Below, piece after piece: positions 62,001 to 64,000 of a DNA stretch of 64,000 nt. The stretch covers positions 1,472,001 to 1,536,000 of the forward strand of contig OY843751.1 in NCBI GenBank assembly GCA_963693055.1. Direction: 5' to 3'. The notes under the pieces are model-generated. The model was not told the origin of the DNA. It did not search any database and saw only the letters and a program-made list of their open reading frames with translations. The position numbers were made by a program, and so were the translations under genes. The number at the start of each line of letters is the position of its first letter. Position 1 is the first letter of the stretch. This DNA is from a bacterium (GTDB lineage Bacteria; Zhuqueibacterota; Zhuqueibacteria; Residuimicrobiales; Krinioviventaceae).

Positions 62001-63885
62001 AGTCTATAATTCTATGGGCCAGCTTGCAGTAATTACGAAACCTATTGAAGATGTGCAAATGACCAGTCATGATTATAGTACTTCTCTCATTGAAGCTGAT
62101 TGGATCATAGGTAATGCTATGACATCAGAGTCAAAAGTTAATAACTATTATACCAATACTTCAAATGATGAGAGTTTGCCACCACACGCAGGTGGGTATC
62201 CTTACACATTTACAAAATATGTTAATGGGTTTAGCGATAGAATAGAACAAGTTGGAAAACCTGGTTATGATTATAGGATTGTGTTAAATGGAAACCAAAT
62301 TGAATACTCTTATGGTACAAATGATGATATCATTACTATTGGTTCAAAGAGTTATTCCGCTCAAAAACTTTATAAAACAATTGTAACTGATGAGTGTAAT
62401 AAAAAAGTTACTGAATATAAAGATATTTTTGGTAATACGGTATTAAAAGTAATTGATCCAGGCTCAACATCAGTGAATTTAAATTTGCAAACCGGTTTTA
62501 TATATGATATTCGAGGTAGTTTAGTTAAAATTCTTCCACCAAAATCAAATTTGTCAGGTACAAGTCCTTACTGTACAAACATGACTTATAATTCGATTGG
62601 ACAAATGCTAACTAAAAGCTCACCCGATGCAGGATTGGTAGAGTACAAGTATGATAATAATGGGAATTTAAGATTTATAAGAGATGCAGTACATCGTTCC
62701 ACAACAGATTTAGACCGATTTGTTTTTAATATTTATGATGAATTAAATCGACTAATTATTACCGGTGAAACAACAAATACTTCATATACTCCTGATTGGA
62801 CTGAATTGAATGGAAACAATGATTATATTGATGGGGCAAATGATTTTGAGAATTTTGACACGCCTGGCACAACATACCAAATTGTTAATTGTTATGATGA
62901 GGCACCTGATTATGGTTCTGAAGGTGTATGGAAAGATGCACTGGATCGGGGAACGTTGAATAATCTTAAGGGGCGTTTGGCGGCAACGGCTTATTATGAT
63001 AAAGTTTCAGGAAAATATGGATATACATATTACTCTTATAATAACGATGGAAATATTGAATCACAATATCAAGATTTACCTGGGAATGAACTTGGTTGTA
63101 AAAAAATTAATTATTTTTATGATTGGCAAGGTAATATAACTAATATCTATTATCAACCATTTACTCTTGATCGTTTTTATATTAATTATGAATATGACTT
63201 GGCCGGGAGAGTTTCAGCGATTAATGCAAGACTAAGAAGTTGGGGGAGTTTTTTTCCAATAACTGAATATGAATATTGGCCAACTGGCCAGGTTAAATCT
63301 GTAATTTATAATTTGTATGACGATGATGACTCTAATGACAAAACTATAAACTATCAAATGCATATACGTGACTGGATTAAGAAAATTGATTTAAATAATA
63401 CATTTCAGGTAGAGTATGATTTCTTTAATAATGGAAATATTAAAGATATGGACCAAAAAGTTGATGGTGATCTTGATAATTCCCTTGCTGATGAAACGAG
63501 TTATGGATATGACATTTCATATGATAATGCTTACAGGTTGAAAGGAGCAACAGCTACAAATACACCAGCTATTAGCGTAGGATATAGTTATGATGATAAT
63601 GGTAATATTTTAGGATTGGGACGTGGTAGCTCAAGTACTCCTTCTCAAAATTATTTTTATATTGCAAATAAAAATCAGCTTGCCTATTTATCGGGGCAAA
63701 CAAATCCTAATTTTAAATATGATTTAAATGGTAATGTTACGGATGTTACTGACAAGGGTATCGAAGATATATATTATAATTATTTAAATTTACCCTATCA
63801 AATTGATTTTAGTTCTGATTGGATTAAATATGGTTATGATGCTACTGGTAAGCGGGTTTATAAAAAAGCATATATTTCAGAATAA
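59026..63885 (+). CDS. Secreted RHS/YD-repeat protein lacking the C-terminal RHS core and toxin domain
   Basis: Sec signal peptide, WVGLGWNL, GGGVRIKK, YFDGLGREIQ, SPDAG..EYKYD, many YD repeats; ends YGYDATGKRVYKKAYISE with no PxxxxDPxG motif. Confidence 0.88.
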   Translation: MKKALFQICLFIIVFINLEKCLAQEYQASEPTVSQFLYNRNDFPLNYNGDLNFSYPLLNVPGINGLNFDLNLLYTSGGGVKASENGSWVGLGWNLNTCQINCAPAFNESNGVESNANDMFYVNLPGLNHAFYNISATSEEIWRTNIFDKINILDIESDLETEDYTGFVITSKDGTRYVFNSPLKRTSPKPLNNHSLHLYGDFTNVWYTYAIRLTAILGPDYIDGGGTSQYIPDDGGSDYGSWIKFEYDTPLVRTIQMGSSTTQRIEIGYLSKIITPTYKAKFNIAYLQEEQTSNEYLLTFDDFDNPLFNIGYLKRLKSIQLFTKEADESSSTNILKEVSFNITKEFGWYDSSFLTTYNRTKLNNVTIYGSGGSSNNSVIDNIAFEYYDYTPQNGYSDPWGFYSRYQDANNWTDSEQVDRWMLKKIIYYSGGFEQFEYESDKFITCSGSPMYSEGELVYGGGVRIKKKTVNDGLGHSYDYLYSYAINHNGYGFISGYPGLAFKNNKSNRLHFSSVGSSYNNDVHYPDITVQNPDLSKTTYYYTTAASAYSSSYATSDELAPPTCDNTESNQGIVYTRQNEEKKYHDCIGYVNVVSNPGFLLYWDDVYFMHEFTNSWKRGIVWKIVKKNISNLPIQEVKNYYYMKPMGARQYQVSFDGSAVHTCYFSYGYPRLDEVITKTFDSNGQNPVESVVSYEYHSTSKLITKITETNSDGNERRARYYYMIDGEFEIDANSDAATVFTNKHMYSQINAVAVHNSNGWDYSTGGSLESLEITWWDEVSKKQRYKTIWTDDEGDKDAESVILPGSIDVDDEWIKISMENYDSHKRLIESIDGNGNVTKYYYGTSNSPFSNSTSNYYVTGIQKQNGTLDTVLPSISGNRPGDDMFLEYQYNNLGQVTKIVDENGKSIYYEYDNSWRLSGQKNNSQTSILSYNYHNKAEGADGGVFDSDDPNAINTSKYYNSTDVGSFVKYFDGLGREIQSQINLGNSMILQGKVYNSMGQLAVITKPIEDVQMTSHDYSTSLIEADWIIGNAMTSESKVNNYYTNTSNDESLPPHAGGYPYTFTKYVNGFSDRIEQVGKPGYDYRIVLNGNQIEYSYGTNDDIITIGSKSYSAQKLYKTIVTDECNKKVTEYKDIFGNTVLKVIDPGSTSVNLNLQTGFIYDIRGSLVKILPPKSNLSGTSPYCTNMTYNSIGQMLTKSSPDAGLVEYKYDNNGNLRFIRDAVHRSTTDLDRFVFNIYDELNRLIITGETTNTSYTPDWTELNGNNDYIDGANDFENFDTPGTTYQIVNCYDEAPDYGSEGVWKDALDRGTLNNLKGRLAATAYYDKVSGKYGYTYYSYNNDGNIESQYQDLPGNELGCKKINYFYDWQGNITNIYYQPFTLDRFYINYEYDLAGRVSAINARLRSWGSFFPITEYEYWPTGQVKSVIYNLYDDDDSNDKTINYQMHIRDWIKKIDLNNTFQVEYDFFNNGNIKDMDQKVDGDLDNSLADETSYGYDISYDNAYRLKGATATNTPAISVGYSYDDNGNILGLGRGSSSTPSQNYFYIANKNQLAYLSGQTNPNFKYDLNGNVTDVTDKGIEDIYYNYLNLPYQIDFSSDWIKYGYDATGKRVYKKAYISE

Positions 63886-63916
63886 TAAAATTTTGACAAT
63901 AAACTTGGAGTTTAAA

Positions 63917-64000
63917 ATGAAAAACGAAATTTTTGTATTATTAATAGTTGTTTTGGTTTTCTTTGGTGTTGCAACTTCTCAGAAAGTTGAAAGAGAAGAA
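63917..64000 (+). CDS. Partial ORF with signal peptide (runs off window)
   Basis: GGAG RBS; MKNEIFVLLIVVLVFFGVATSQKVEREE. Confidence 0.6.
   Translation, partial: MKNEIFVLLIVVLVFFGVATSQKVEREE

Follow-up and report, generated by a model that had tools for sequence, protein, structure and literature searches.

An Rhs Polymorphic-Toxin Locus With Shell, Middle and Core Pieces on Separate Genes, Each With a Predicted Signal Peptide, Beside a T2SS-Like Cluster

The DNA analyzed in this study was a stretch of 64,000 nucleotides (the window; G000:C1:1472001-1536000) from the genome of an uncultured KSB1 bacterium, assembled as one contig of 6.5 Mb. Near the end of the window begins a group of genes that are referred to as A, B, C, and D (Table 1). 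Signal peptides at this locus were called from charge and hydropathy. Gene A contains NCBIfam YD repeats (TIGR01643) as well as the Pfam domains DUF6443 and RHS_repeat (PF05593), and profile matches tie it to solved Rhs proteins with a shell of YD/RHS repeats. The profile of its C-terminal part aligns to the solved BiTLP up to residue 1989, and the NCBIfam scan revealed no Rhs-associated core (TIGR03696) in gene A. Its polypeptide ends with YGYDATGKRVYKKAYISE, 6 residues past a Y-D-x-x-G-x-R-x-x-K motif, and is followed by TAA TAA at 63883-63888. Gene B starts 31 bp past these stops with an ATG at 63917, in a frame other than that of gene A, and its product begins with MKNEIFVLLIVVLVFFGVATS, a hydrophobic leader and predicted signal peptide. 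A clean end at TAATAA without the RHS core and a new gene 31 bp downstream with a ribosome-binding site and a hydrophobic leader are exactly what the original prediction had described. By eye, a glutamine follows the apparent signal-peptide cleavage site in A and B, in line with the Bacteroidetes 'Q-rule'.

Table 1. Positions of the genes and features at the rhs locus and of the paralogous locus (window-relative unless contig C1 is named; L001 positions in brackets)
Feature	Position	Strand	Description
T2SS/type-IV-pilus-like cluster	47441..57777	+	candidate export machine
Sigma-54-type activator	57741..58694	+	between T2SS-like cluster and shell; same place in G004 and G080
Gene A	59026..63885	+	Rhs shell, 1619 aa, predicted signal peptide, DUF6443 and YD repeats
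Tandem stop, spacer, and ribosome-binding site	63883..63916; GGAG 63907-63910	+	TAA TAA, 31-bp spacer, GGAG
Gene B	63917-65593 (L001 6917-8593)	+	558 aa; runs past the window end
Gene C	65651-66706 (L001 8651-9706)		351 aa, own signal peptide, Rhs core, and 218-aa variable tip; outside the window
Gene D	66870-67973 (L001 9870-10973)		367 aa, signal peptide, TolB-like propeller; outside the window
Second A|B|C locus, same genome	C1 2188410-2195088		paralogous, shells 37% identical

A 23.8-kb contig in each of three public runs had 0 differences to L001 1800-11172, an agreement that gives no independent support because the three runs come from one sample. The rhs genes have a GC content of 28-35%, compared with 39% for the genome, and the same-genus genome G001 had no match, which suggests a mobile island. 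A promoter scan at the locus stayed at chance level (65 vs. 62.9).

Gene B consists of a signal peptide, an unnamed beta-rich N-terminal domain, a DNRLRE/CBM96 domain (NF033679, 5e-16 with NCBIfam; 7VBO, 8e-8), and a single C-terminal Rhs hairpin, TYYVRDAAGNVIATYER, which was modelled as two strands at residues 542-546 and 552-557. About 500 non-Rhs residues separate the end of gene A from this hairpin. Y544, A548, G550, V552, A554, T555, and Y556 of the hairpin were invariant among seven sequences. The model of gene B had a pLDDT of 70.7 and its Foldseek matches were weak and partial, with a best E of 1.5e-4; in the ESM Atlas, its N-terminal domain matched only unnamed clusters, with scores of 0.95-0.96.

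The original prediction had expected the core and the toxin past position 64000, as a separately exported product of the gene immediately downstream of the shell. A core directly after the shell was ruled out, as gene B is without TIGR03696 in the NCBIfam scan; formally, this is the first of the outcomes named in the original prediction as refuting it. A separate gene for core and tip, with its own signal peptide and conserved in other loci, does exist, and since it lies one gene beyond B, the protein is divided into three pieces rather than two. In this gene C, the core with its PxxxxDxxG motif (TIGR03696, 68.7 bits against a cut-off of 32.5) follows directly behind the signal peptide, from residue ~25. 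Shell and core thus sit in separate polypeptides, the core two genes downstream, and not in one chain as in canonical Rhs proteins. The autoprotease residues R93 and D106 were invariant and D130 was conserved in at least 90% of the sequences; their spacing of 13 and 24 residues is that of R2103, D2116, and D2140 of BiTLP (PMC13018210, in part). On the solved BiTLP, the profile of gene C begins at residue 2037.

Modelled alone with AlphaFold, gene C had a mean pLDDT of 42, and the ESM Atlas scores for its tip were under 0.9. The tip was present in 2 of the 167 genomes of the phylum. It matched no Pfam family and had only one homologue, so that its toxicity is assigned from its position. Tip and gene D recur together in G091 behind a different core that has no signal peptide, with identities of 30% for the tip and 29% for D. 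This single independent case is as expected of a toxin-immunity cassette, and gene D likely encodes the immunity protein. Past gene D and terminator-like hairpins, there is a radical-SAM-like ORF with a CxxxCxxC motif (L001 11888-12910), which is probably unrelated to the Rhs locus.

The cluster upstream of gene A encodes a GspE/PilB ATPase, a secretin, accessory proteins, pseudopilin-like proteins, GspF, a major (pseudo)pilin, and a prepilin-peptidase-like protein, of which the accessory proteins and the peptidase were named from gene order and sequence without an HMM match. The HMM matches of GspE (6e-161), GspD (4e-59), GspF (3e-88), and GspG (1.5e-11) were all below the curated cut-offs; type IV pilus scores were similar, and the HMM score cannot separate a T2SS from a type IV pilus. 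The genome contains two full copies of the cluster, each directly upstream of one A|B|C locus. It was also directly upstream of the loci in G004, G080, and G133, adjoined unsplit shells as well (L038 and L049), and was not seen in the 17 kb upstream of the G098 shell. T2SSs export folded oligomers from the periplasm. The cluster may be a T2SS devoted to the export of large Rhs capsules in phyla about which little is known. Rhs toxins with signal peptides were placed under T2SS/Sec export before (Zhang et al., 2012; PMC3482391, in part).

Searches for components of other routes gave the following results. VgrG (TIGR01646) and VipB (PF05943) had no match in the genome, while the Escherichia coli control was positive; a divergent Bacteroidota-type T6SS could escape these models. 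The NCBIfam scan identified no T9SS sorting domain in A-D, though SprA is present; A and B end in Rhs strands. The TcA translocator (PF03538) also had no match in the genome, yet no control matched either.

Upstream of the T2SS-like cluster, the window contains three IS-like elements and a resolvase-like gene (38998-44303); from their appearance, we take the elements to be IS256- and IS3-like. Between these and the cluster, two secreted proteins with a common N-terminal segment are encoded at 44823-46087 (-). One is presumably like the Fibrobacter succinogenes major paralogous domain, and the other presumably ends in a T9SS-type sorting domain.

The same arrangement was found elsewhere. At the paralogous locus of the same genome, the shell has 1704 aa and stops at the same motif as gene A. 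The middle gene (169 aa) has a signal peptide and two hairpins but a different body from gene B, and the core gene (335 aa) has a signal peptide and a tip that is unrelated to that of gene C. The complete A|B|C order together with the cut sites was identified in 5 loci of 4 genomes, which were G000 (twice), G004, G080, and G098. The A|B order was further found in G092 and G133, and the B|C order in G135, G134, and 4 of 7 loci from metagenomes, while the remaining 3 are frameshifted or degenerate. Gene B of G133 is followed by a gene with a signal peptide in which no core was seen over the 316 aa up to the contig end. The A-B gaps across the loci ranged from 26 to 113 bp.

The shell C-terminus matched 10 of the 167 genomes of the phylum at an E of at most 1e-12. 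Among the 12 shells behind these matches, 7 stop at the motif, 1 stops one hairpin later, 2 continue into a core within one ORF, and the remaining 2 give no information. Similar results were obtained with the protein database when the stop position was compared, a check that the original prediction had asked for: 8 of the best 12 among the 120 listed non-self shell matches end 4-9 residues past the motif (4 of them confirmed on loci, the other 4 without a check for contig ends). Two more end one hairpin (50 residues) later and 2 end short of the motif, including P0163, which was counted as short because its C-terminus ends ahead of the motif, though the scripted class was 'core'. None of these 12 was full-length, the first core-bearing homologue being at rank 13 of the 120 listed matches. 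The script classed 84 of the 120 as core-bearing, so that unsplit forms dominate among the distant relatives. Since the stop and the gene order recur at the paralogous locus and in other genera, they are neither chance nor error.

In the unsplit relative L038, one chain contains the shell motif, a hairpin, short strands, and a DHLG core, colinear with the A|B|C pieces. About 25 residues between hairpin and core in such unsplit relatives have no counterpart in B or C. The unsplit L039, whose shell motif meets the core almost directly, is also without the whole hairpin-to-core segment. In L038 and L030, an accessory domain is inserted immediately ahead of the last shell motif, so that the rim region of the shell tolerates insertions as well as cuts.

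The position of the cuts varied. Late-cut shells, which stop one hairpin later and are followed by a B-type gene with a signal peptide, were found in KSB1 genomes G149, G154, and G162. B is fused to core and tip in P0007 and six more KSB1 proteins, and earlier cuts followed by B-Rhs-core chains occur for the second shell of G004 and in G157, G161, G032, and G140, also from KSB1. In the phylum of a Balneolaceae MAG, 44 of 301 genomes matched. The 30 loci returned were unsplit (19), split (6), or unclear (4), and 1 had no match. All 6 split shells stop 40-52 residues past the profile end, with a signal-peptide gene next in each. In this sister form of the split, the order in the two Balneolaceae genomes read in detail is shell, middle signal-peptide protein, and a protein with signal peptide, PKD-like domain, core, and tip; the middle protein was CBM20+TPR in both that were scanned.

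A quick tree of 43 shell ends mixed split and unsplit forms; on it, the A|B|C type requires 3 changes, the late type 6, and the unsplit type 7. Its strongly supported branches force at least 2, at least 3, and at least 4 of these changes, respectively. Thus, splitting or re-fusion took place more than once. With several changes required on the quick tree, a single origin of the split is not taken as shown.

A profile of signal peptide plus core was run against 1.84 billion representatives, and the best 150 were inspected. A leader directly ahead of the core was present in 26 of them, and 2 more were missed by the search pattern (~28 in all). Of 78 representatives whose core is N-terminal, 28 had a hydrophobic stretch ahead of it, compared with 1 of 44 whose core is internal. 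Because the profile was designed to detect this kind of protein, these numbers give no frequency. P0042, whose signal peptide is doubtful, was left out of alignment A5. The tips were diverse, 3 of 300 pairs being related. Two of 27 tips had a toxin-type Pfam match, one ADP-ribosyltransferase-like and the other M91-peptidase-like.

Taken as a whole, the locus probably carries one Rhs polymorphic-toxin chain that is split over three genes with predicted Sec signal peptides and whose parts would reassemble after export. Given the predicted export signal at the start of each gene and the recurrence of the cuts in distantly related genomes, assembly of the capsule from its separate parts likely takes place outside the cytoplasm. 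A, B, and C would cross the inner membrane separately via Sec. In the periplasm, the hairpin of B would complement the beta-strands at the open shell rim, and the core of C would close this end, with the tip inside or tethered. The core would cleave off the tip. The folded A-B-C complex would then leave via the adjacent T2SS-like machine, and the CBM96 domain of B may bind a surface glycan. The tip would harm competing cells, while D would protect the producer in the periplasm.

Alternatively, the three chains might be exported separately and remain independent, with C as a free-standing toxin whose core is a processing or uptake module and with A and B as an adhesin or scaffold. We regard this as unlikely, as different genera retain the A-B-C order with cuts placed between successive Rhs strands, although G059 contains a complete signal-peptide core gene and no shell match in its genome (520 contigs; the gene is near a contig edge). 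In the known structures of Rhs proteins, the shell is sealed by the core, which spirals into it (PMC8765631, in part). The open shell and the bare core would therefore each expose unpaired edges if the chains were independent.

It is similarly doubtful that A and C assemble while B is accessory only, for example as a loading chaperone or surface anchor, with its hairpin outside the final shell. Such a role would agree with the direct joining of shell motif and core in the unsplit L039, with the different 169-aa body of B at the second locus, and with the unrelated CBM20+TPR middle gene of the Balneolaceae, whose shells retain the hairpin themselves. The terminal hairpin of B, however, was conserved in the seven sequences and was kept, even doubled, at the second locus. 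Moreover, B-C fusions are without the hairpin, and the shells upstream of other B-type genes keep their own, suggesting that the hairpin is supplied once per arrangement.

Rejoining of the pieces into an ordinary one-chain Rhs protein, covalently or by DNA recombination, RNA splicing, or readthrough, appears very improbable. Although Rhs loci swap orphan cassettes by recombination (PMC11067744, in part) and truncated orphan cores are present in this genome, the spacer lengths and frames between A and B vary among the loci. Every gene comes with an RBS-like site and a signal peptide, and ~500 non-Rhs residues lie between the end of A and the B hairpin. No A-to-C joint was seen in the run contigs, which drop rare variants. 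One weak joint (2971-6870; 21 letters, depth 4, one run) was rejected as likely unrelated DNA. Finally, a strain-specific nonsense mutation, an assembly error, or a decaying pseudogene is hardly credible despite the IS elements 15-19 kb upstream, the degenerate copies elsewhere (L050, L054, and L056), and the lack of a match in same-genus G001, since 8 homologues, among them the genome's own paralogue, share the stop, which already refutes nonsense and assembly error, and the ORFs and catalytic residues are intact with signal peptides at both cuts.

The split Rhs chain with reassembly after export may be compared with known systems. In the ABC/Tc toxins, the products of two genes, TcB and TcC, build a single cocoon, and YenB pairs with three C chains, YenC1, YenC2, and YenC3 (PMC11067744, in part). 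Similar to TcB-TcC, the locus here encodes the pieces of a putative Rhs cocoon on separate genes and has an aspartyl autoprotease core; a shell part that accepts different chains of core and cargo may be a further likeness. Different from TcB-TcC, it has three chains with a signal peptide each and a T2SS-like cluster alongside; while TcC brings ~680 shell residues, gene C contains only ~110 residues of core. TcB-TcC is the closest known system in logic, and the one-chain WapA/TLP proteins are the closest in export.

Sec-exported one-chain Rhs/WapA proteins and bacterial teneurin-like proteins (BiTLP) have the signal peptide, YD shell, TIGR03696 core, variable tip, and downstream immunity gene; the locus shares these features, its signal peptides being predicted and its immunity gene likely. 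S. suis WapA possesses an unknown domain and a DNRLRE domain (PMC12704120, in part). WapA and BiTLP are single polypeptides that are autoproteolysed after synthesis, with the DNRLRE domain N-terminal to the shell, whereas the cuts here are genetic and the DNRLRE domain is on a separate chain at the shell-core junction. The N-terminal domain of gene B presumably resembles the unknown domain of WapA. The T6SS Rhs effectors RhsA, Rhs1, Tse5, and Tse15 have homologous shells and cores, but the locus here has signal peptides instead of a PAAR/VgrG part. Orphan rhs-CT/immunity cassettes resemble the locus in placing core, tip, and what is here the likely immunity gene downstream of a shell; they are 5'-truncated and used by recombination. 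Unlike these orphans, gene C has an RBS, a start codon, a complete signal peptide, and an entire core, and the shell upstream of it has no core. Listings and abstract openings of the openly accessible literature contained no description of an Rhs protein that is split at the core with separate signal peptides, and the phrases split, bipartite, or tripartite Rhs had no match there.

The original prediction also held that one shell could load interchangeable toxins. The present genome does not support this: its 2 shells are matched by 2 complete signal-peptide cores, and of the 13 core matches, the remaining 11 are truncated and without a signal peptide. It gained ground from the Balneolaceae genome G170, where three complete signal-peptide core genes (494, 451, and 459 aa) with different tips lie behind one shell and interchangeable loading is plausible. 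More broadly, we tentatively suggest a T2SS-linked Rhs class in KSB1 and Rhodothermia/Bacteroidota in which shell, plug with cargo, and glycan-binding chain are secreted separately and mixed at the protein level. In such a class, an empty shell might perhaps be loaded in the periplasm and capped by the ~110-aa plug with its tip, while the third chain would staple a glycan-binding module into the shell wall. A single shell could then carry several different cargoes with no need for recombination.

The folding of an Rhs cocoon around its cargo and its closure are difficult to follow when shell, plug, and cargo form a single chain, as they normally do. Natural loci with a cut between shell and core reveal where the barrel can be opened, and the order of loading becomes directly testable with separate chains. 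The split loci also point to toxin diversification at the protein level. Automated annotation would mislabel split shells as truncated and their cores as orphans.

Orphan cassettes were found as well. Truncated core-tip cassettes lie in G000:C1 at ~362,700, ~1,118,600, ~2,229,900-2,232,700, and ~5,149,800-5,159,400; they have neither a signal peptide nor a DHLG start, are mostly followed by short genes, and are in some cases beside IS elements. They likely serve gene C as a reservoir for recombination. Partial B-core-tip cassettes, in arrays and followed by small genes, were identified in L092 (G158), L093 (G095), and L147 (G099) and are the orphan form of the B-C fused variant. A further core cassette follows the first one in L142 (G098:C368:1-270); only part of its signal peptide is left, and it may be either an orphan or an expressed gene.

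Immediately downstream of the second locus, ~20 tandem paralogous secreted proteins of 320-620 aa are encoded (G000:C1:2195605-2225691, -). They share a C-terminal ADFVFEKDY.LPSL...KHLP.IPS motif, which presumably resembles the tail-fibre chaperone/peptidase S74, followed by a coiled coil. Similar genes were also found upstream of the unsplit shell in L038.
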